From an uncultured bacterium (lineage in GTDB: Bacteria; Krumholzibacteriota; Krumholzibacteriia; LZORAL124-64-63), in the NCBI GenBank assembly GCA_963727525.1, contig CAVSGO010000005.1, forward strand, positions 576,001 through 640,000: a stretch of 64,000 nt of DNA, written 5' to 3'. Each line of letters starts with the position of its first letter. Position 1 is the first letter of the stretch. Positions 1 to 56,603 of this stretch are shown here, in pieces. Under the pieces are notes generated by a model. The model saw only the letters and a list, made by a program, of their open reading frames with translations, searched no databases and was not told the origin of the DNA. Made by a program: the position numbers and the translations under genes.

Positions 1-645
1 GAGCATGGTCACCGGCTGCTTGCGCTTGCGATCGATATGGACGTAGAGGATGTCGTTGATATCGGTGGTGAACTCGACCCAGGAACCGCGGTACGGGATG
101 ATACGGGCACGGAAGAGACGGCGGCCGTTCGGATGGATCTCGTCGCTGAAGAACACGCCCGGCGACCGGTGGAGCTGGGACACGATGACGCGCTCGGCGC
201 CGTTGACGATGAACGTGCCCTTGTCGGTGATCATCGGCAGCTCGCCGAGATACACCTCCTGTTCCTGGATGTCGCGGATCTGGAGCTCGGCGTCGTTCGC
301 GCCCTCTTCCTGATCCTTCACGACCAGCCGCAGGCGTACCTTGAGCGGTACGCTGAAGGTGAGGCCGCGCTCCTGGCACTCCTCGATGCCGTACTTGGGC
401 TCCCCGGTGGTATAACCGATGTACTCCATCACCAGGTGACCACGAGTCGACTCGATCGGGAAGATCGCCTGGAAAACGCCCTCGAGACCGATCTCGTTCT
501 TCTCTTCGTCACCCACACCGTGCTTCAGAAAATCGTTGTATGACTCAAGCTGCACGGCCAGGAGGTTTGGCATCTCCTCCTCGTGCTGGAGCTTGGAGTA
601 GTTGACGCGTCCGGTGAACTTGTCGTTCGGGATCTTGACACTCAC
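1..645 (-). CDS. rpoB: RNA polymerase beta subunit, 5' part (runs off the window edge)
   Basis: Manual translation from GTG at 645: MSVKIPNDKFTGRVNYSKLQHEEEMPNLLAVQLESYNDFLK...YVHIDRKRKQPVTML. Lies directly downstream of rplL. Absent from the ORF track because it is truncated. Confidence 0.97.
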   Translation of the reverse strand, partial: MSVKIPNDKFTGRVNYSKLQHEEEMPNLLAVQLESYNDFLKHGVGDEEKNEIGLEGVFQAIFPIESTRGHLVMEYIGYTTGEPKYGIEECQERGLTFSVPLKVRLRLVVKDQEEGANDAELQIRDIQEQEVYLGELPMITDKGTFIVNGAERVIVSQLHRSPGVFFSDEIHPNGRRLFRARIIPYRGSWVEFTTDINDILYVHIDRKRKQPVTML

Positions 646-781
646 GTGACCACTTCCTCGCGCGAAGGGGCGTCGAACTTGCGGATCCGGCACCCCGCCA
701 TCGGTGGCGTCGGCATCCGGAACCGGGACTCCGCAGCCCCGCGTCCGACACGGACGCGGGGCAGCGGCAAACAGCAGGCGG

Positions 782-807
782 CGCGAACGGTTCCCTCACC
801 GTTCGCG
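782..807 (-). terminator. Hairpin between rplL and rpoB (possible terminator/attenuator)
   Basis: Inverted repeat CGCGAACGG...CCGTTCGCG just after the rplL stop; weak U-tract. Confidence 0.4.
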
Positions 808-813
808 GCGGAC

Positions 814-1206
814 CTACTTCAGGTCGACGATGGCACCGGCTTCCTCGAGCTTGGCCTTGATCTGCTCGGCCTCCGCCTTCGTCACGCCTTCCTTGACGCT
901 GGTCGGCGCGCTCTCGACCAGATCCTTGGCCTCCTTCAGGCCCAGGCTGGTGATGGCGCGGACCTCCTTGATGACCTGGATCTTCTTGTCACCGATGCCG
1001 GTCAGCACCACGGTGAACTCGTCCTTGACCTCATCCTGCGCTTCGCCACCGGCAGCGGGCGCGGCCATCATGGCCATCGGTGCCGCGGCGCTCACGCCGA
1101 ACTTCTCCTCCATGGCCTTCACCAGGTCGGCGGCCTCGAGGACGGTCATGCTCTCGATGAGATCGAGGACCTTCTGAGCGTTCTCACTCAGGTTGATATC
1201 GGACAT
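814..1206 (-). CDS. rplL: 50S ribosomal protein L7/L12
   Basis: [35 protein letters not shown] and KLEEAGA motifs; synteny. Confidence 0.98.
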
Positions 1207-1292
1207 GGTCGGTCTCTCCTGTTTGTCTGGTTCACACGGCGGCTGTACACGAGACGGGCGCCGTTCCTGTCAACTTGCGACGACTCTGCCGG

Positions 1293-1814
1293 TCAGGCAG
1301 CGGCTTTCTGCTTGGCCACTGCGTCGATCGCGCGCGCGAGGGCGGCGGCGACGCCATTGACCGTGACGGCGATCCCGCGCGCCGGCGAATTGATGCTGCC
1401 CATCATCTGGGAGATCAGCTCGTCGCGACTCGGAATCTTCGACAGGACCAGTACGCGGTCGGGACCGATGTACTGACCGTCGACGATGCCGCCCTTGATC
1501 GTGAGCTTATCGTTGTCCTTGGCGAAATCGACGACGAGCTTCGCCGGGTCCACCTGGCTCTGCGACCCCATCACCAGCGCGGTGGGGCCGCTGAGATGAT
1601 CCTTGATCACCGCCAGGCTGGCCTGGTCGGCGGCGATCATCGCGAGCCGGTTCTTCACGACCCGGCACTCGACGTTCTTCGCGCGACACAGCGACCGGAA
1701 AGCCGTCATCTGCAACACCGTCAGCCCGGTGAAGTCCGCCATGATGACGGACTGCGCCGCTTTCAACTGACCGGTGATCGCCTGGACGTCGGCAATCTTA
1801 TCGGGACGTGGCAT
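1293..1814 (-). CDS. rplJ: 50S ribosomal protein L10
   Basis: DFTGLTV, VVKNRL, LSGPTAL and LSKIPSRDEL motifs; between rplA and rplL. Confidence 0.97.
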   Translation of the reverse strand: MPRPDKIADVQAITGQLKAAQSVIMADFTGLTVLQMTAFRSLCRAKNVECRVVKNRLAMIAADQASLAVIKDHLSGPTALVMGSQSQVDPAKLVVDFAKDNDKLTIKGGIVDGQYIGPDRVLVLSKIPSRDELISQMMGSINSPARGIAVTVNGVAAALARAIDAVAKQKAAA

Positions 1815-1870
1815 GTCGGTCTACCTTCCTTGAACACAACGGACCAGGGCTGAGCGCCCCCGGTTCGCCA

Positions 1871-2560
1871 CTAGGTCAATGATGCGTACTCGATGCGCAC
1901 AGCGGGCGTCATGGTGCCGCTGATGAACATCGACTTCACGTACGCACCCTTCACGGCGGAGGGCTTCACACGCATCAGCTCGTTGTACAGCGAGCGGATA
2001 TTCTCCTCGAGCTGCACGTTCGAGAACGAACGCTTGCCGACCGGTGCGTGGATGATCCCGGCCTTCTCCACCCTGTACTCGATACGACCCGCCTTGGCCT
2101 CCTTGACGGCCTTGGCGATGTCGTTGGTCAGGGTACCGACCTTCGGGTTCGGCATGAGACCGCGCGGGCCGAGGATCTTGCCCAGCTTGCCGAGCTCGCC
2201 CATCATGTCCGGCGTGGCGATGATCACGTCGCAATCAGTCCAGCCGTCCTTGATCTTGGGCAAGTACTCGTCGGCCCCCACCATGTCGGCGCCCGCGTCC
2301 TTGGCCTCTTGCTCCTTGGGCCCGCGCGTGATCACGAGGATCCGCACTTGCCGGCCGGTGCCGTTGGGCAGAACGACGGTGCCGCGAACCATCTGGTCCG
2401 CATGCCGCGGGTTGACGTTGAGGCGAACGGCGCAGTCGACGGTCTCGTCGAACTTCGCCTTGGGGAAGGCCGCCAGTTGCTCGAGCGCCTCGCTCAGCGT
2501 GAATTCCACGTCCTTATCGACCGCGGACCTGGCGTTGCGGTAATTCTTTCCACGTTGCAT
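1871..2560 (-). CDS. rplA: 50S ribosomal protein L1
   Basis: AKFDETVD, DQMVRGTVVLPNGTG and LGPRGLMPNPKVGT motifs. Confidence 0.98.
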   Translation of the reverse strand: MQRGKNYRNARSAVDKDVEFTLSEALEQLAAFPKAKFDETVDCAVRLNVNPRHADQMVRGTVVLPNGTGRQVRILVITRGPKEQEAKDAGADMVGADEYLPKIKDGWTDCDVIIATPDMMGELGKLGKILGPRGLMPNPKVGTLTNDIAKAVKEAKAGRIEYRVEKAGIIHAPVGKRSFSNVQLEENIRSLYNELMRVKPSAVKGAYVKSMFISGTMTPAVRIEYASLT

Positions 2561-4471: not shown

Positions 4472-4547
4472 TGGCAGGGGCGGCAGGTTTCGAACCCGCG
4501 ACCCTCGGTTTTGGAGACCGATGCTCTACCAGCTGAGCTACGCCCCT
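4472..4547 (-). tRNA. tRNA-Trp (CCA)
   Basis: 76-nt cloverleaf AGGGGCGTAGCTCAGCTGGTAGAGC..CTCCAAA..GGTTCGAAACC..CCA; canonical position before secE. Confidence 0.97.
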
Positions 4548-4602
4548 GCCTGATTCGACGACTCAGGGCATACGCACGCCGGCGCCGAGCGCCGGCGTCA
4601 CG

Positions 4603-4752
4603 CTACCTGGTTTCCTTGTGCGGCGTATGCGTCCGGCAACGCGGGCAGTACTTCTTGTACTCCACACGGTCCGGATGGAGCCGCTTGTTCTTCTTCGTCG
4701 TGTAGTTCCTCTCCTTGCACTTGTTGCAGGAGAGAATGATCAGATCGCGCAT
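4603..4752 (-). CDS. rpmG: 50S ribosomal protein L33 (Zn-binding type, two CxxC)
   Basis: Manual translation [49 protein letters not shown] (49 aa); below the ORF-track size cutoff. Confidence 0.97.
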
Positions 4753-4784
4753 GACGGGTTCCGCCTTCGACTACTTGGGATCTT

Positions 4785-5978
<1,194 letters not shown>

Positions 5979-6083
5979 CAGCGGCTTCCTCCCGAGTCAA
6001 ATCACTTCACAGCAGTGCGCCGGCTGCACGCGCAGTCCGGCTGCGTCCGTTCTTCCTCACGGCCGTTCCCAACGACTATGGTC

Positions 6084-6159
6084 TGGAGCCCACGAGCAGA
6101 ATCGAACTGCTGACCGCTTGCTTACCATGCAAGTGCTCTACCGGCTGAGCTACGTGGGC
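6084..6159 (-). tRNA. tRNA-Thr (GGT)
   Basis: 76-nt cloverleaf, anticodon loop ATGGTAA, T loop GTTCGATT, CCA end. Confidence 0.95.
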
Positions 6160-6190
6160 CCGATCCATTTCTTCGTCACAACAGCCCTGC

Positions 6191-6266
6191 TGGAGCGGGA
6201 AACGGGGTTCGAACCCGCGACCCTCAGCTTGGAAGGCTGATGCTCTGCCAACTGAGCTATTCCCGC
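6191..6266 (-). tRNA. tRNA-Gly (TCC)
   Basis: GCGGGAATAGCTCAGTTGGCAGAGC..CTTCCAA..GGTTCGAACCC..CCA, 76 nt. Confidence 0.96.
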
Positions 6267-6300
6267 TCCATACCGCCCGCGGTCTCGCGGATCGTCTCGG

Positions 6301-6386
6301 TGGTGGGGGGGGGAGGATTCGAACCTCCGTAGGCTACTGCCGACAGATTTACAGTCTGTTCCCTTTGGCCACTCGGGAACCCCCCC
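6301..6386 (-). tRNA. tRNA-Tyr (GTA)
   Basis: 86 nt with long variable arm, anticodon loop CTGTAAA, CCCGAGTGGCCAAAGGG D arm, ACCA end. Confidence 0.96.
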
Positions 6387-6442
6387 ACGCGTATCTTGCG
6401 CATGGGTCGGCCCCGGAAACGCGATGGGGCCTTCGCTAACGC

Positions 6443-6518
6443 TGGAGCTGGCGAGAGGACTTGAACCCCCAACCGCCTCATTACAAGTGAGGTGCTCTAC
6501 CAGTTGAGCTACGCCAGC
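6443..6518 (-). tRNA. tRNA-Thr (TGT)
   Basis: 76-nt cloverleaf, anticodon loop CTTGTAA; first gene of the classic Thr-Tyr-Gly-Thr-tuf operon. Confidence 0.96.
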
Positions 6519-29809: not shown

Positions 29810-31245
29810 CTACACGGTGGCTTCCGCAACAGCGGAGGCGCCATCGCTCGACGCGGTCACGGCGGCAAGCAGGGCGCGAGTCTTCGCCTCTGTCGCCTCC
29901 GTCATGGCGAGAATCGAGATGGCGATTCCAGCCCCGAACCACCAATAGATCTCGTAGAGATCCATTCCGAAGAAACCAAGAACGAGCCGCACAAAGATGA
30001 AACCGGCCGCAGCGTTGGCCGTGGCGGCGAGAAGTTGGAGATCCTCGTAGTGAGAGGCGATCGCCTTGCGAGCGGGTGGTGACAGACCGGACCGGGCGAC
30101 GGCGCGAAGCGGCCGCAATTGCCGCGTCAACTCCCTGTAAGCTCGGAAGTATCCGGCCATCATCGACCACACGAAGTACAGGAATACTGCCAGTCCCTGG
30201 ACGCCAATATTCGTGCCGACTTCGAGATAGAGATTGTGCGTGTCCTGCGTACGGCCGAACCGCTGCGCCCGCACAAGCGGGAAGCAATCAGACCGACGCC
30301 GAGAGGATTCTCACGAAAGATCTCCCAGGCATCTTTCAGGATCTGAATCCGCGTCTCTTTCGAGTGTCCTTCCGCCTCTTCGCCCGTGATGCTCTCGAAA
30401 CGACCAATATATTGCTTGGGTATCGCGAACACGACGATCGGTGTCAAGATGGCAACAGTGACCATGAACCGCTTCTTGCGTTTCGAGCGAGCGAACCAGA
30501 ATACTACCAAGGACACAAGGGCAACGTACGCGGTACGCGATCCGCTGTAGATAACGCAGATAACGGCCGTCACAAGCAGCAACGCCATGAGTCCGCGTAT
30601 CCAGAAATTGCGAAGGACTGGCCAAAGAAAGATCACGAACGGTATTCCACCCATGGCCACGCCACCAAGGCTGTTCGGATGCATGTAGATGGGAACCGCG
30701 CCATGCAGTCGCATCACGCCCTGATTCTGCCAGACAAGGCCACCAGTGATCAGTCCGCGGAAAGCCTCCGACGTGATATAACAGACGGCGAACATGTAAG
30801 CGATCATGAACCACCGCATGTTTCGGGGCGAGCCGATGAGAACTGAAATAAACAAGGTGAGAGCCGCGAACTTGACGACGCGATCGATGAACTCGCGCTT
30901 CGCGATCTCGACCGATGCCGACACCGGGATCTGCAACAGCATGACGCAAAAAAGGAGCACGATCCCGATAACGACATGCTTCCCACGGTCGACTCTCACC
31001 GGGGTTGATGCCATGACGGCGACGGACGTCGCGATGAGCGCCCAGCCCAGGAGGAACTCGAATCGTATGGAAGCGAGGAGCGACGACCGGGCGGGCGCTT
31101 GGACATAGAAATCGAGCACGAACGCCAGGAACATCAGTGTTGCCATAACAGGCGGCTCGCGGTAGAAGGACGTCCGTCTTGCCTTCACGGTGCCCGTCTC
31201 GCTAGCGGATGGGTTGAGGGTGCGCTTCGCGGACGTCACGTTCAC
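29810..31245 (-). CDS. O-antigen ligase/Wzy-like membrane protein, frameshifted near 30282
   Basis: HPNSLG, SGSRTA and ENPLGVG in one frame; DTHNLYLEV..IGVQGL in another. One added base joins them (GVGLIAFPLVRAQRFGRTQDTHN). Confidence 0.82.
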
Positions 31246-50536: not shown

Positions 50537-51169
50537 ATGAGCGAAGCGCTACCTCCCCTGCCGGCGAGTCATGAGCTCGTCGCCATCTTCGATCACGTGG
50601 TCGGTCGCTGGCACGACCGCGAGAGCGCCATCGACGACTGGTCCGGCGCGCAGCGCGAGTGTCCCGAGCCTGCCGGCGAGGCTGCGGCGCTGGTCCAACG
50701 GTTGATTCTCATCAACACCTTCCAGTGGCACGAGGAGGATCGCAGTCGCGATCTCGGGGCCGATGACCACGTGCTCGCCGCCGTGAAGCGCTCGATCGAC
50801 GCCTCGAACCGGCGGCGCGTGCAGACCATCGACGACCTCGACGCCTGGTACGTCGCCGCCCTGGGCGACCGACAGAGCGCCAACGCGCCGGTGCCGAGCG
50901 AGACGGTGGGCAGCATCGTCGACCGCCTGTCGATCCTCGCGCTCAAGCGCTACCACGTCCAGGAAGCCTGCGACGCCGCGGCCGCTGGCGACCGGAATGC
51001 CATGCGCACGCGCTTGACGGTGCTCGACGAGCAGTACGGCGACCTCGCCGCCTGCTACGACCGCATCCAGGCCGATGTCCTGGCCGGCCGCCTGCGCCTG
51101 AAGCGGTACCGCCAGGTGAAGGTGTATCGCGATGCCGCCACGGGGCACCTGCGCGCCGACATCTCCTGA
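50537..51169 (+). CDS. DUF4254-like protein
   Basis: INTFQWHEED, VKRSIDASN..R, SETVGSIVDRLSILALK.YH and YRQVKVY motifs; AGGAG RBS. Confidence 0.75.
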   Translation: MSEALPPLPASHELVAIFDHVVGRWHDRESAIDDWSGAQRECPEPAGEAAALVQRLILINTFQWHEEDRSRDLGADDHVLAAVKRSIDASNRRRVQTIDDLDAWYVAALGDRQSANAPVPSETVGSIVDRLSILALKRYHVQEACDAAAAGDRNAMRTRLTVLDEQYGDLAACYDRIQADVLAGRLRLKRYRQVKVYRDAATGHLRADIS

Positions 51170-51306
51170 TTCACGTCCGGTAACTGGCATTCCCGCCGGA
51201 TTGTCATAATCTAGAGTTAATTGGTGATTTTTTCGTGTCACGGCCCGGCCGCGGCGGCGTACTGCTGGTGTGTGACGACCAGGCACCATCCACGAGGAGT
51301 GATCCG

Positions 51307-52140
51307 ATGCCCCATACCCGCATGCTCACCGCGCTCGCGCTCGCCGCGATCCTCGCCGCCGGCGCCGGCCAGGCCCTCGCCCAGGCCCAGATCGGCGATC
51401 TCGCCCCCGATTTCACGCTCGCCGGCAACGATGGCAACAGCTACACGCTGAGCGACTACCGCCAGGACGGCAATCAGCAGGTGGTTCTCCTCTTCATGAT
51501 GGGCTACGCCTGAGGCGCCTGCATCCAGGACAGCCCCAGTTTGGAGGCTATCGTTCAGTCCTACGCCGGCCGGCCGTTGACGGCCTTCGCCTGCGACTTC
51601 TGGAACGGCAACGACCTGCAGTGCGACCTCTTCCAGCAGACCACGGGCATCTCGTTCCCCGTGCTGGAGATGGCGTCGCCCCTCGGCGCGCCGAACATGT
51701 ACAACTGCAGCTACCACTATTGCTTCGTCCTCGACGGCGACGGCGTGGTGCAGTACCGTGGCGCCGGCGTGAACATCCCCGCTCTGAGCCAGGTGATCGA
51801 AGAGGCCGTGAACCGACTCGAGGATCAGAACAACGTCGGGGTGAACGACACGCCGGCAGCCGGCGCCTCGCTGGCGCCCAACGTGCCGAATCCGTTCAAC
51901 CCGGCCACGCGCCTGCCCTTCACGGTGGATCGCGACGGCCTGAGCGTGACGATCGGCGTGTACGACATGCGGGGTCAGCTCGTGCGCACCCTTGCGACGG
52001 GCCCGCAACCGGCCGGCCGCCACGAGGTGACGTGGAACGGCCGCGACACGAACGGCCGCCTGATGCCCAGCGGCGCCTACGTCGCACGCCTGCGCGCCGG
52101 CGGCGCGGAGCAGGCCCGGGTCATGACGCTGGTCAAGTGA
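51307..52140 (+). CDS. Probable selenoprotein: signal peptide + redoxin (AhpC/TSA/TlpA-like, UxxC) + FlgD-like C-terminal domain
   Basis: [26 protein letters not shown][TGA]GAC continues in frame to [35 protein letters not shown]; 277 aa with U69. Confidence 0.85.
51532..51549 (+). promoter_or_regulatory. Candidate bacterial SECIS hairpin
   Basis: AGCC-CCA-GTT-TGG-a-GGCT stem-loop; apical GU lies about 25 nt after the TGA at 51511-51513. Confidence 0.6.
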
Positions 52141-52159: not shown

Positions 52160-53086
52160 GTGGGCGTGGCTGACACGGCATACCTGATCGACGGCATGGC
52201 ATACGTCTTTCGCAGCTACTACGCCATGCGCCCGATGACGGCGCCCGACGGCACGCCCATCAATGCGGTGTTCGGCCTCGGCATGACGCTGCAAAAGTTC
52301 CTGCGCGACCACAAGCCCGTTCACCTGGCCTGCTGCCTCGACGCCGGCGCCCACACCTTCCGCAACGAGATGTACCCGCTGTACAAGGCCAACCGCGGCG
52401 CCGCCCCTGCGGACCTCGTACCGCAATTCGATCTCTGCCGCGCACTCGTGGCGGCCCTTGGCATCCCGGTGGCCATGTGCCCCGGCTACGAGGCCGACGA
52501 CATCATCGCCACCCTCACCGATCGTCTACGCGCCGAAAGCCTCGACGTGGTCATCGTGTCGGGCGACAAGGACCTCGCCCAGCTCGTGGGTCCCGGCGTG
52601 CGCATCTACAACCTGGCCCGCGACGAATGGTGGGACGAGACCAACGTCCACGAACGCCTCGGCGTCCCCGCCATCCAGGTGCGCGACCTGCTCGCCCTCA
52701 CCGGCGACACCTCGGACAACATCCCCGGCGTGCGCGGCATCGGCCCCAAGGCCGCCATCGCCCTGCTCGCCGGGTTCGGCGACCTGGCGGGGATCTACGC
52801 CGATCTGGACCGCGTGGAAACCCTGCCGCTGCGCGGCGCGAAGTCGCTGCGCCGCAAGCTCGAGGACGGACGCGAGGCGGCCTTCCTGAGCCGTCGCCTC
52901 GTCGACCTGCACCGCGAGGCACCATGCCCGTTCACGGGCGCGGACCTTCGCTGGCGTGGCGTCGACCCGACGGTGCTGGGCGCATTCGCACAGCAATGGG
53001 GACTGGGACGCGTGGCCACCACGCTCGCGGGCGGCAACCCCAGCGATCCACGAACCAGCAGCCAGCACGAATCTTCCGGGTCTTGA
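52160..53086 (+). CDS. Stand-alone 5'-3' exonuclease/flap endonuclease (PolA N-terminal-like)
   Basis: LIDG..FRSYYA, YKANR, EADDIIATL, SGDKDL and GDTSDNIPGVRGIGPK motifs; no polymerase domain. Confidence 0.92.
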   Translation: MGVADTAYLIDGMAYVFRSYYAMRPMTAPDGTPINAVFGLGMTLQKFLRDHKPVHLACCLDAGAHTFRNEMYPLYKANRGAAPADLVPQFDLCRALVAALGIPVAMCPGYEADDIIATLTDRLRAESLDVVIVSGDKDLAQLVGPGVRIYNLARDEWWDETNVHERLGVPAIQVRDLLALTGDTSDNIPGVRGIGPKAAIALLAGFGDLAGIYADLDRVETLPLRGAKSLRRKLEDGREAAFLSRRLVDLHREAPCPFTGADLRWRGVDPTVLGAFAQQWGLGRVATTLAGGNPSDPRTSSQHESSGS

Positions 53087-54050: not shown

Positions 54051-56603
54051 CTAGCGGACGAGGGTTACGGATGTTGTGCGGATGCCGCTGGCGCACTCGA
54101 GGCGGCAGAGGTACGTGCCTGACTCGACTGGTCGACCTGTGGCGTCGCGGCCGTTCCAGGTGGCTTGGCCCTCGCCGGCGGAGATGTCGGCTGATAGCAG
54201 GGTCACGATGTGGTGGCCGCGCAGGTCGTAGAGGGCGAGTTGCGCGAAGCCGGGACGGTCGGCCTGGTAGCGCAGGGTTGTTGTCGGGTTGAACGGGTTG
54301 GGGCGAGCCGTGACGGTGACGCTTGTCACGACAGGTACGTCGACCGCGAGCTCCTCGACCGTGACGTCGTCCAGGGCGAGCGCGTAGGACATCGTCGCGC
54401 CGGCGACGAGGTGGGCGTCGAGGTCGGTTGCGGCGAAGCCGTTGTCGCTCGCGGTGACTGCGACCGGCCAGGTCAGGGCGCCGAGGTGGGCCGTGAGTCG
54501 GAAATCCGAGGCTTCGCGCGCCGGGGCGCGCCAGCTCAGTGTCACGCAGCCGGGCACGGCGTGCGCCGCGAAATCGGCAACCTCCACGCCCACTGGACCA
54601 CCGCATTCGCAGGCGTCGCAACCTGATGGGAGTGCGCCGATGAGCAGGTCGTTGTGGAGAGGATTGTGCGGCGGCAGACACCACGAATCGGCGCAGAGCG
54701 ACAGGACGCCCGTTTCAAGATCGCAGAAGCAGGGGGGTGCCAGGAAATTGTCGCGCAGATCGAGCTGGTCGGCGATGGGAGCGGTCCAGTCGCCCCCCTC
54801 GTTACCGAACATATCGCAGGCTCGAAAGTAGGCGTCGCCGTCCTGGAGCAGCAGGATTGCCGGGCCGCTATCGCTCGTGAACGCCACGATGGACTGTTCC
54901 ATGCGCAGGTAACCCGACTGGCTGAAGAGCGCGGCCCCCGACGAGTGGTTCCCCGCCACCGTGCACGAGAAAGCATCCACGTGCGCATCTTGCGCGGAGA
55001 TCGCGGCGCCGAACACGCCCGCGTTGTCGTGGAACACGCAGCTCCGCAAGACCGGCCACGCGCCGTCCGTTGTCGCCAGGCCCGCACCCCAGACGGCCCA
55101 GTTGCCCTCGAAACGGCAGTCCTCGAATACCGGCGATCCGCTCTCCACGAGCGCGCCGCCGCCGGCGCCGTTGCTCGAGCCACCGCGCACCGTGAGGCCC
55201 ACGACGCGGGAATCCACACCCTCGACACCGTGGAAATGGAATCCGCGACCTTCTCCCTCGGCGTCGATGATGCATGCCTGGGGATCGCCCGACGCCGAGC
55301 GGAGCGTGAGCGCCTTGCCATGGAAGTCCAGATCGCGATTGCCCGGCCCGCTGAAGGTGCCGTCGGCAAGCAGCACCTCGCCACCGGCCGGCACGATGTC
55401 GATCGCGCTCTGGACCGTGGACAGCGCGCCGTGGCCGTCGGGATAGACGACGTAGCCGTCGCTCACGCAACCCTCGCCATAGAGACCGATCTGCTCGCCG
55501 CAGGCATTGTTGGCCGCCAGACAGGGCGAGATGTCCGCGAGCCCCAGGTCGCCGCCGGCGAGGTCGCAGACCAGGGGATTGGCGTCGATGTTGCCGTCGA
55601 CCCGGAGCTGATCGGCGATCGTATAGTGCCACGTGCCACCGTTGGTGAAGATGTCACAGCAGTGGAACGTCGGTGGTGACTGCGGATCGCCGATGATCGC
55701 ATAGGTGCCCTCGCTGAAGGCGAAGAGGCAATGCTCGAAGGTCGGGGTCAGCCACTCGTCGTTGGCCTGGCACATGACGTCCCCCACGAGGTCGCCGCCA
55801 TTGGCGAGGAACGTGCAGCCGGAGACGGTTCCGCCAGCGTCGAAGAAATAGATGCCTCCGCCGTATTCGCCGTGGTTGCGAGTGAAGAGGCAATCAGTCA
55901 CATCGGTGTTCGTGACGGAGAGGGCGACGGGATTGAACGAGCAAATATTGTCGCGGAACACGCAATGTTCGAAATGCCCCGATGCGCTATCCTTGTGCAC
56001 GATGGTGCCGGCGCCGATGACGTGGTCGTGAAATTCGCAGCGCCGGAGCGTCAGACCGTTGCCGTTGGCCCATATGGCAGCACCGGTCGCGCAGATGTTG
56101 CCGGCAAACTCGCTATCCTCGATGAGGTCCGTGAAGTCGGACCACAGATTGCGGATCCGGATCGCTCCTCCACCTTCCGACGCCCGGTTGTTCAGGAAGC
56201 GGCAGTGCCGCGCCGTCAGACCACCGCCCTCGATCGATACCGCGCCACCGCCGGCGGGACGATTCCCGTTCGTGATGGTCAGGCCGACCAGGGTCAGGCG
56301 AAACTCGGCGGTCTGATCGAATCCACCGGACTGCTCCAGGTCGACGACGCACGCGGTCGCGTCACCGGATAGCGACTGGAAATAATAGTCGTGTGGACCG
56401 AGCACGAGATCGCGATTCCCGGGGCCCGTGAAGACGCCGTCGGCCAGCACGATCGTATCGCCGGCCGCAGCCGCCGCGATGGCCGTCTGGAGGTCGGGGA
56501 CATCGCCCGCACCGTCGGGGGCGACGTGGATCTGCGCCGCGGTGGCAGTGAGACCTGCGAGGACGATGGCGAGCGGGAGCATCCGCAAAGCTGGTCGGAA
56601 CAC
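54051..56603 (-). CDS. Secreted protein with two tandem beta-helix modules and a FlgD-like C-terminal domain
   Basis: Signal peptide; duplicated V.PDG.G..Q.AI..LADG.F.GPGNRDL; GGA/C.F..N repeats; PNPFNP...WNGRD...SGTY...VTLVR. Confidence 0.85.
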   Translation of the reverse strand: MFRPALRMLPLAIVLAGLTATAAQIHVAPDGAGDVPDLQTAIAAAAAGDTIVLADGVFTGPGNRDLVLGPHDYYFQSLSGDATACVVDLEQSGGFDQTAEFRLTLVGLTITNGNRPAGGGAVSIEGGGLTARHCRFLNNRASEGGGAIRIRNLWSDFTDLIEDSEFAGNICATGAAIWANGNGLTLRRCEFHDHVIGAGTIVHKDSASGHFEHCVFRDNICSFNPVALSVTNTDVTDCLFTRNHGEYGGGIYFFDAGGTVSGCTFLANGGDLVGDVMCQANDEWLTPTFEHCLFAFSEGTYAIIGDPQSPPTFHCCDIFTNGGTWHYTIADQLRVDGNIDANPLVCDLAGGDLGLADISPCLAANNACGEQIGLYGEGCVSDGYVVYPDGHGALSTVQSAIDIVPAGGEVLLADGTFSGPGNRDLDFHGKALTLRSASGDPQACIIDAEGEGRGFHFHGVEGVDSRVVGLTVRGGSSNGAGGGALVESGSPVFEDCRFEGNWAVWGAGLATTDGAWPVLRSCVFHDNAGVFGAAISAQDAHVDAFSCTVAGNHSSGAALFSQSGYLRMEQSIVAFTSDSGPAILLLQDGDAYFRACDMFGNEGGDWTAPIADQLDLRDNFLAPPCFCDLETGVLSLCADSWCLPPHNPLHNDLLIGALPSGCDACECGGPVGVEVADFAAHAVPGCVTLSWRAPAREASDFRLTAHLGALTWPVAVTASDNGFAATDLDAHLVAGATMSYALALDDVTVEELAVDVPVVTSVTVTARPNPFNPTTTLRYQADRPGFAQLALYDLRGHHIVTLLSADISAGEGQATWNGRDATGRPVESGTYLCRLECASGIRTTSVTLVR

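Follow-up and report, generated by a model that had tools for sequence, protein, structure and literature searches.

A probable selenocysteine-containing redoxin with a C-terminal sorting-type domain, split in two by automatic annotation, in the Krumholzibacteriota

This work deals with a 64,000-nucleotide stretch of DNA from an uncultured bacterium of the phylum Krumholzibacteriota (assembly GCA_963727525.1, contig CAVSGO010000005.1, positions 576,001 to 640,000 of the forward strand; the whole stretch is hereafter called the window) and with one gene in it, at positions 51307-52140. In all probability this gene encodes a single selenoprotein of 277 residues, in which the UGA at codon 69 would be decoded as selenocysteine (Sec) and which would serve as an exported thiol-disulfide redoxin, with the secretion system of type IX (T9SS) as its most likely route. 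That Sec takes the place of the first cysteine (Cys) of a CxxC pair, as the initial annotation of this DNA had proposed, is supported by the pairing of Cys and Sec among homologs, by a hairpin resembling a selenocysteine insertion sequence (SECIS) behind the TGA, by the Sec machinery genes of the genome and by fragmentary gene calls.

The region 51307-52140 on the forward strand constitutes one frame of 277 codons plus stop, with a lone in-frame TGA at 51511-51513 (codon 69). A default list of open reading frames presents it as two pieces, one ending at 51513 and the other starting from a TTG at 51541. As the initial annotation had stated, both pieces share one frame and the TGA is their sole interruption. 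Its expectation that pipelines would fragment the gene was likewise borne out: of this gene, the protein collection contains just the downstream piece, 199 residues long, and some two dozen homolog clusters are truncated in the same way. Read through the TGA, the protein comprises, in this order, a signal peptide, a redoxin domain with U69-x-x-C72, a linker and a C-terminal FlgD_ig-type beta-sandwich; the initial annotation had already described a signal peptide, a redoxin and a C-terminal sorting-type domain, and Pfam, the structural model and inspection of the sequence agree with it. Orthologs with 34-44% identity align along residues 1-277. The signal peptide, predicted by inspection, contains no lipobox Cys; residues 4-20 are helical in the model and orthologs share an equivalent hydrophobic N-terminus. 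The locus is thereby confirmed as a real gene for a predicted exported Sec redoxin that automatic annotation divides in two.

That the TGA is a functional codon is supported by its conservation, which goes well beyond what chance would give. A six-frame search of 60 relatives yielded full-length matches at the identities given above, and each of the 19 best loci, as well as the window's own, exhibited exactly one in-frame TGA. In all 20 loci it lies at the aligned codon, within the motif G-[YHFW]-x-U-x-x-C; this set includes one member of a paralogous group (locus L038) with the motif W-U-P-V-C. In the protein alignment G30, U/C69, C72, P118 and L120 are invariant. Conservation extends to either side of the TGA, with which a nonsense mutation is not compatible. 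The redoxin domain alone was then used as query against 208 genomes of the phylum (E up to 1e-12), of which 69 contained a match, among them 55 of the 90 genomes from the window's own family. Among the matches listed, 80 of 83 carry an in-frame TGA (79 with one, one with two, three with none), and these 80 span 68 other genomes. All 32 further sites that were extracted from the new loci have the TGA at the aligned codon. Of the three matches lacking a TGA, one stops short of the site; the other two include it, with TGC and TGT as their codons. A search of the genome contigs with the whole protein gave matches to the C-terminal domain only (24 loci, residues ~168-277) and no orthologs.

At the level of the nucleotide sequence itself, the TGA proved unchanged in a check against public data: contigs from three runs of three studies span 51511-51513 with 0 differences, whereby these runs may include the source sample and their contigs cover the gene partially, no piece spanning the whole stretch. 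TGA also terminates the window gene and several of its orthologs. As the gene's own terminator is a TGA, this codon acts as an ordinary stop here and an alternative genetic code is excluded. The TGA at 51511-51513 is neither an error nor a nonsense mutation.

Several variations of the gene were observed within the phylum. Locus L142 (G169:C164:684-1094) is the one with two in-frame TGA codons; it reads G-F-G-U-W-R-U, a UxxU site, and is followed by the same downstream hairpin. Tandem pairs of Sec redoxin genes, a few hundred bases apart, occur at G131:C204, G142:C12, G143:C3, G151:C78, G051:C27 and G052:C230. The paralogous Sec protein represented by L038 (also G024:C105, G036:C35 and G017:C179) has approximately 700 residues, with a long N-terminal region, a redoxin part reading F-F-A-N-W-U-P-V-C and the same C-terminal tail. 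Short redoxin forms (L037, L039, L079 and L080) exist without the Ig-like tail and end in a conserved W/F-[SG]-G-[ILV]-K-x-[LY]-[YF]-R.

Outside the phylum the same protein is found with Cys. A HMMER scan of 1.84 billion representative proteins yielded three classes of matches: many multi-domain proteins matching the tail alone, about two dozen clusters of 150-208 residues which start at query residues 76-123 and are downstream fragments of Sec forms, and many full-length proteins of 254-286 residues. From the 150 best matches, 35 full-length proteins, selected for a single match over most of the query, were aligned. Position 69 is a Cys in 34 of these 35 proteins (one has Tyr) and position 72 is a Cys in all of them. 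Together with the TGA of the 80 matches and the TGC and TGT of the two Cys forms from the phylum itself, this agrees with the assignment of Sec at position 69 in the initial annotation. The residues between the redox pair differ: 24 of the 35 Cys forms read C-P-x-C, whereas Sec forms mostly read U-[SGA]-[ST]-C, with Pro in 3 of 20. The names given to the Cys forms by their sources are 'T9SS C-terminal target domain-containing protein' (Calditrichota), 'redoxin family protein' (Rhodothermales, Bacteroidota) and 'peroxiredoxin'. Judged by these alignments, the window gene is the selenium version of a widespread and poorly studied family of predicted secreted redoxins.

In bacteria using Sec, a hairpin behind the UGA would be expected to direct its recoding, and a short hairpin was indeed found about 20 nucleotides past the UGA in each ortholog. 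In an alignment of 43 sequences without the paralog, 83.3% of the cells are paired, compared with at most 58.1% when the 3' partners are slid; the covariation is 0.165 versus at most 0.093 slid, with 9 double-change cells, and 0 of 500 shuffles reach it. The alignment of 20 sequences, which includes the paralog L038, exhibits 80.8% paired cells (at most 57.5% slid) and a covariation of 0.304 (at most 0.143 slid), with 10 double-change cells and again 0 of 500 shuffles reaching this value. The loop is GGUAC, GGUCU or AGUKU, and G occupies its second position (position 38) in 39 of the 43 sequences. Six of six pairs are formed in 18 of the 43 Sec forms, five in 9, four in 14 and three in 2.

Other results on the hairpin are less favorable. 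The pair formed by columns 32-47, one out of six, is lacking in 21 of 43 sequences, many of which use a register with an internal mismatch rather than a bulge. The same stretch also codes for the conserved peptide G-P-G-T-E-A, for which reason its covariation is modest. In RNAfold, the 76-nucleotide stretch reaches a minimum free energy no better than that of shuffled sequences (z 0.41), and RNAalifold on the hairpin retained 4 pairs only, at near-zero energy. An Rfam scan of the window returned 5 tRNAs only, with no match to a bacterial SECIS at the redoxin locus. Two Cys-form genes from the phylum served as a control; one makes 3 and the other 4 of the 6 pairs, but two genes are too few for a conclusion. 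On the basis of its conservation, the hairpin at 51532-51549 is regarded as a SECIS-like element and conserved candidate for recognition by SelB.

Whether the organism is able to decode Sec depends on its machinery, which was searched for in a genome of 4.66 Mb in 8 contigs with an estimated completeness of 96.7%. A tRNA-Sec is present (Rfam 70.4 bits, cut-off 47; anticodon TCA by ARAGORN), as is an intact selA at 462 bits. The selD gene scores 365 bits (G000:C8:225636-226547, minus strand, locus L018) and has an in-frame TGA of its own in ...FAKSAGUAAKL. Also selB is above the cut-off, at 302 bits over model positions 2-313, but its frame runs into the next gene and the C-terminal winged-helix part is matched separately in another frame. 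The initial annotation had made its proposal dependent on selA, selB, selC and selD; this stands for selA, tRNA-Sec and selD, all intact, and stands in part for selB, which is present but split over three frames.

The state of selB is the single point that could speak against a present decoding of Sec in this organism. When the SelB proteins of two relatives were aligned to the genome by tblastn, residues 1-455, 456-520 and 535-612 fell in three frames. At each of the two breaks a G/C run seems to be short by one base. The run at the second break has 8 bases, and G/C runs of at least 8 bases number just 28 in 4.66 Mb. In a rough census of such breaks, 400 kb of a relative was compared with the genome, with stop-to-stop frames as queries, giving 147 non-overlapping ortholog places (186 kb). 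Six places were flagged: one verified clean frame change, one gene boundary, three antisense frames without Pfam match, and one more. The verified break is located near 30289 in a Wzy_C (O-antigen ligase-like) gene at window ~29858-31245 on the minus strand, as compared with the ortholog in G009. With this single other verified frame break, a generally error-rich assembly is not supported, and as there is only one other break in 186 kb, the two within 1.9 kb of selB stand out. The sequence flanking the selB homopolymer, when looked up in metagenome contigs by exact match, gave no result. The breaks therefore go back either to a local error of the consensus or to a genuine loss of function, and it may be that selB is in fact inactive.

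These observations are what one would expect if the family were a true selenoprotein family in which the source organism had recently lost Sec decoding through inactivation of selB, so that the gene would now yield a 68-residue fragment and be decaying. We consider this unlikely, while giving it real weight. Either break amounts to a single base lacking from a G/C run, as is usual for consensus errors, and neither the redoxin gene nor selD, which are otherwise intact, has lost its TGA. In addition, selA and tRNA-Sec are intact, and selB is above the cut-off in 35 of the 36 relatives searched, including genomes with a TGA ortholog in which selB occupies a single frame. We therefore favor a selenoprotein that is still decoded, although present-day Sec decoding in the source organism is not fully secured.

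The redoxin domain itself was assigned by Pfam to AhpC-TSA (residues 29-150, 39.8 bits, cut-off 26) and to Redoxin (37.1 bits, cut-off 26.6). Among the NCBIfam models, those for selenoproteins included, none reached its cut-off on the window protein, the closest ones in theme including ResA at 32.8 bits. An AlphaFold2 model, calculated from a 21-sequence alignment, has a mean predicted local distance difference test score (pLDDT) of 90.1 and shows U69 past strand 59-65, at the N-terminal end of helix 70-85; this is the canonical active-site position of the thioredoxin fold. A Foldseek search against the PDB returned on top a putative protein disulfide isomerase from Bacteroides (2ls5) and ResA from Bacillus (1su9/1st9; TMt 0.88-0.89, root-mean-square deviation (rmsd) 1.7-1.8 A), then the thiol-disulfide oxidoreductases 4nmu, 3kcm and 3gl3, and after these the peroxiredoxins AhpE and Bcp. 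A sequence search of the PDB agrees with this ranking.

As the main functional alternative the domain might be a peroxidase in the style of a peroxiredoxin or glutathione peroxidase, in which U69 would reduce peroxides via a selenenic acid. The best Pfam match being AhpC-TSA, the occurrence of AhpE and Bcp among the structural matches and the name 'peroxiredoxin' given to one Cys homolog by its source would all fit with this, and selenols are generally known to react fast with peroxides (see also PMC13188914). Yet the peroxiredoxin motif PxxxTxxC/U is absent: the site reads M-G-Y-A-U-G-A-C, with no Pro four residues before the Sec and no Thr, and Sec occupies the position of the Thr in that motif rather than the peroxidatic one. 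Instead, Sec comes first in a thioredoxin-type UxxC, as in the family described as Prx-like (PMC1088965), and the top structural neighbors are of the ResA/TlpA/DsbE type. As PxxxTxxC is missing and Sec stands first in a thioredoxin-type UxxC, thiol-disulfide exchange via a U69-C72 selenenylsulfide is favored. From sequence and model, the domain most likely catalyzes this exchange, and a peroxidase appears improbable.

With respect to the C-terminal tail, Pfam identified FlgD_ig at residues 205-263 with 53.2 bits (cut-off 27). The last 90 residues are modeled as a seven-strand beta-sandwich (pLDDT 90.6), for which Foldseek found the Ig-like domain of FlgD (3osv) as best match (E 1e-4) and also PorU of P. 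gingivalis (6za2, TMq 0.71) and PorZ (5m11). The tail furthermore matches the C-terminal part of the NCBIfam PorU model. In the window's genome this domain ends more than 150 open frames, nearly all of which reach the last residues of the query, and among the 150 matches listed from this genome all but the gene itself hit the tail domain. Its location at the extreme C-terminus of many proteins is the pattern of a sorting domain and not that of a flagellar protein. The window encodes one of these at 54051-56603 on the minus strand, a right-handed beta-helix protein of 850 residues that likewise ends in the PNPFNP tail. The search for T9SS genes covered PorU, PorV and SprA; PorU was found at 436.5 bits (cut-off 420) and SprA at 480 bits summed.

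Some results speak against an export by the T9SS. The type A sorting model TIGR04183 scores 20.2 bits, below its cut-off of 23, the Pfam family Por_Secre_tail was not among the matches at E up to 0.1, and the PorV-like gene directly downstream of PorU has 91 bits, under the cut-off of 250. The domain could accordingly be a structural or adhesive Ig-like module of the FlgD type on a protein that stays periplasmic like ResA and TlpA, and the name of the Pfam family, the best fold match to FlgD and the TIGR04183 score would be in line with this. Such a module would, however, hardly be expected to form, without exception, the very C-terminal end of over 150 unrelated proteins of one genome. Matches of the tail extend to the C-terminal portion of the PorU model and to the structures of PorU and PorZ, the genome contains PorU and SprA, and the rest of FlgD is missing from the protein: the FlgD equivalog model gives at best 42.6 bits against a cut-off of 230, and the Ig-like domain alone is matched. 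A purely periplasmic redoxin is thus regarded as rather improbable, somewhat more so than the peroxidase. Type IX secretion of the redoxin is likely, as the best reading of these sequence data. For the routing to the surface that was part of the initial annotation this means that the occurrence of the tail on more than 150 frames and the presence of PorU and SprA support it, while the route itself is deduced and the tail misses the cut-off of TIGR04183.

Virtually no credence is left for a nonsense mutation, a sequencing error or a use of TGA as a Trp or Gly sense codon under an alternative code, for which nothing speaks beyond the in-frame stop itself and which are refuted by the conservation of the TGA across the phylum, by the agreeing contigs of the three runs, by the Cys at the homologous position of the Cys forms, by the TGA terminators of the gene and several orthologs and by selA, selB and other genes being free of internal TGA codons.

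In the mechanism which we propose, the ribosome would read the UGA of codon 69 as Sec, guided by the hairpin 21-38 nucleotides downstream, to which SelB carrying Sec-tRNA(Sec) would bind. The product would leave the cytoplasm via the Sec translocon and fold in the periplasm as a ResA/TlpA-like domain with the selenol/thiol pair U69-G-A-C72. The C-terminal Ig-like domain would then most likely pass the protein to the type IX system, leading to its release or its attachment to the cell surface. There, the selenolate of U69 may attack a substrate disulfide or other oxidized sulfur or selenium species, C72 would resolve the mixed intermediate, and the selenenylsulfide formed in this way would be recycled by a reductant that is either external or periplasmic.

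The initial annotation had considered this architecture to be without precedent, which did not hold: the same layout is common in annotated Cys forms, and descriptions of Prx-like selenoproteins with UxxC go back to 2004-2005 (PMC1088965, PMC13188914). These proteins, for which a distant homology to peroxiredoxins and a thioredoxin-like motif are reported, are an established predicted family (PMC1088965, PMC2398784), termed 'Prx-like protein' (PMC1088965) or 'Prx-like 1-3' (PMC2398784). Table 1 of PMC13188914 contains Prx-like thiol:disulfide oxidoreductase selenoproteins (PF00578, UxxC/UxxU; Kryukov and Gladyshev, 2004). The window protein shares with them the AhpC-TSA/Redoxin fold, the thioredoxin-type UxxC with Sec first, the existence of UxxU variants, widespread Cys homologs and, behind the UGA, a hairpin of SECIS type whose loop contains a G. 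It differs by its C-terminal sorting domain, none being mentioned in the published descriptions on which this comparison is based.

Structurally, the redoxin domain resembles ResA/TlpA/DsbE proteins (1su9, 1st9, 4nmu, 3gl3) over ~140 residues with TMt 0.85-0.89 and an rmsd of 1.7-2.2 A. Both share export, which is predicted for the window protein, an active-site pair placed where helix 1 begins, and a conserved Pro at the cis-Pro position. ResA/TlpA/DsbE proteins, by contrast, use Cys, typically in W-C-x-x-C, are membrane-anchored or periplasmic, have no Ig-like tail and share 16-25% identity. Closest in layout are the Cys-form T9SS/redoxin proteins of Calditrichota, Rhodothermales and Bacteroidota (e.g. 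P0050, P0044, P0158) with the same domain order, 254-286 residues and 25-35% identity over the whole length; they differ from the Sec forms by C-P-x-C (with the Pro in 24 of 35) and the lack of a TGA, and none is characterized, judging by their names.

Thioredoxin-type T9SS cargo has been described in P. gingivalis, where HBP35 is a cell-surface protein with a C-terminal domain whose thioredoxin activity, measured on recombinant protein, needs both Cys (PMC2907840; PMC3120885). According to these descriptions, HBP35 is similar to the window protein in combining a thioredoxin-type motif with a C-terminal domain, but contains Cys, binds hemin and is longer (40 kDa). Extracytoplasmic selenoproteins have likewise been predicted, namely SaoB and SaoC of the SAO system, whose database entries mostly break off at the Sec codon (bioRxiv 10.1101/2022.07.06.499078). 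As portrayed there, they differ from the window protein in having other folds, a CU motif, an occurrence in Firmicutes and a lipoprotein/ABC-transport context with no T9SS. A literature search yielded no paper that joins selenoproteins with type IX secretion or with the Krumholzibacteriota, whereby gene lists in BSepDB (PMC13326102) or in reviews might already include the family. What is described here is hence not a new selenoprotein chemistry, and the domain architecture pre-exists with Cys; the novelty lies in the occurrence of a probable T9SS cargo in a Sec form, and in how close this form is to fixation within a phylum.

Within the Krumholzibacteriota the Sec form nearly replaces the Cys form (80 of 83 among the matches listed), often in tandem and once as UxxU, whereas Bacteroidota, Calditrichota and Rhodothermales keep C-P-x-C. 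It is a tentative thought, and one we would not yet bet on, that the protein is the first selenoprotein found as type IX cargo, placing a selenol catalyst outside the outer membrane and beyond the reach of cellular reductants, where Sec may be favored by a recycling through environmental sulfide or thiols in anoxic sulfidic sediment. If true, recycling of the selenenylsulfide by environmental sulfide or small thiols would permit extracellular disulfide, polysulfide or peroxide chemistry without a cytoplasmic electron supply. An export by the type IX system would also mean that selenium biochemistry reaches the bacterial cell surface, and would offer, in U-[SGA]-[ST]-C and C-P-x-C, a Sec/Cys pair occurring in nature with which the preference for selenium outside the cell could be studied. 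Through the splitting of the gene by annotation, a conserved and presumably secreted redox enzyme has become invisible across a candidate phylum, which makes a case for a selenoprotein-aware family model in annotation pipelines. The Sec usage of these uncultured sediment bacteria would be broader than formate dehydrogenase and SelD.

The features of the gene, together with the frame breaks of selB, are compiled in Table 1.

Table 1. Positions of the features discussed, in window coordinates except for selB.
Feature	Position	Strand	Remarks
Shine-Dalgarno-like GAGGAG	51294..51299	+	7 nt ahead of the ATG at 51307; read directly from the sequence
Whole coding sequence of the predicted selenoprotein	51307..52140	+	277 codons plus stop TGA; one internal candidate Sec codon
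Predicted Sec-type signal peptide	51307..51381	+	25 residues, ends A-L-A before Q; by inspection
Thioredoxin-fold redoxin domain, ResA/TlpA-like	51391..51780	+	residues 29-158; Pfam, AlphaFold2, Foldseek
TGA, putative selenocysteine U69	51511..51513	+	opens the U-G-A-C active site
TGC, predicted resolving Cys72 of UxxC	51520..51522	+	invariant in 20/20 relatives and 35/35 Cys-form homologs
SECIS-like hairpin AGCCCC-AGUUU-GG(A)GGCU	51532..51549	+	21-38 nt past the U of UGA; apical loop with G
CCC, Pro118 at the thioredoxin-fold cis-proline position	51658..51660	+	invariant in 20/20 relatives; 30/35 Cys forms; by position only
C-terminal beta-sandwich sorting-type domain, PNPFNP motif	51874..52137	+	residues 190-277; Pfam FlgD_ig residues 205-263
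True stop codon TGA	52138..52140	+	read from the sequence
selB, two apparent single-base frame breaks	G000:C5:675706-677590, locus L010 ~640-2487	-	outside the window; alignment to orthologous SelB

A scan for promoters and terminators found nothing around the redoxin gene. Its upstream neighbor at 50540-51166 (forward strand) encodes a DUF4254 protein and its downstream neighbor at 52160-53083 (forward strand) a stand-alone 5'-3' exonuclease; for neither is a functional link to the redoxin evident. Further away, at window positions 4475-6518 on the minus strand, five tRNA genes form a cluster that adjoins one of two EF-Tu copies (G000:C5:581064-581942).

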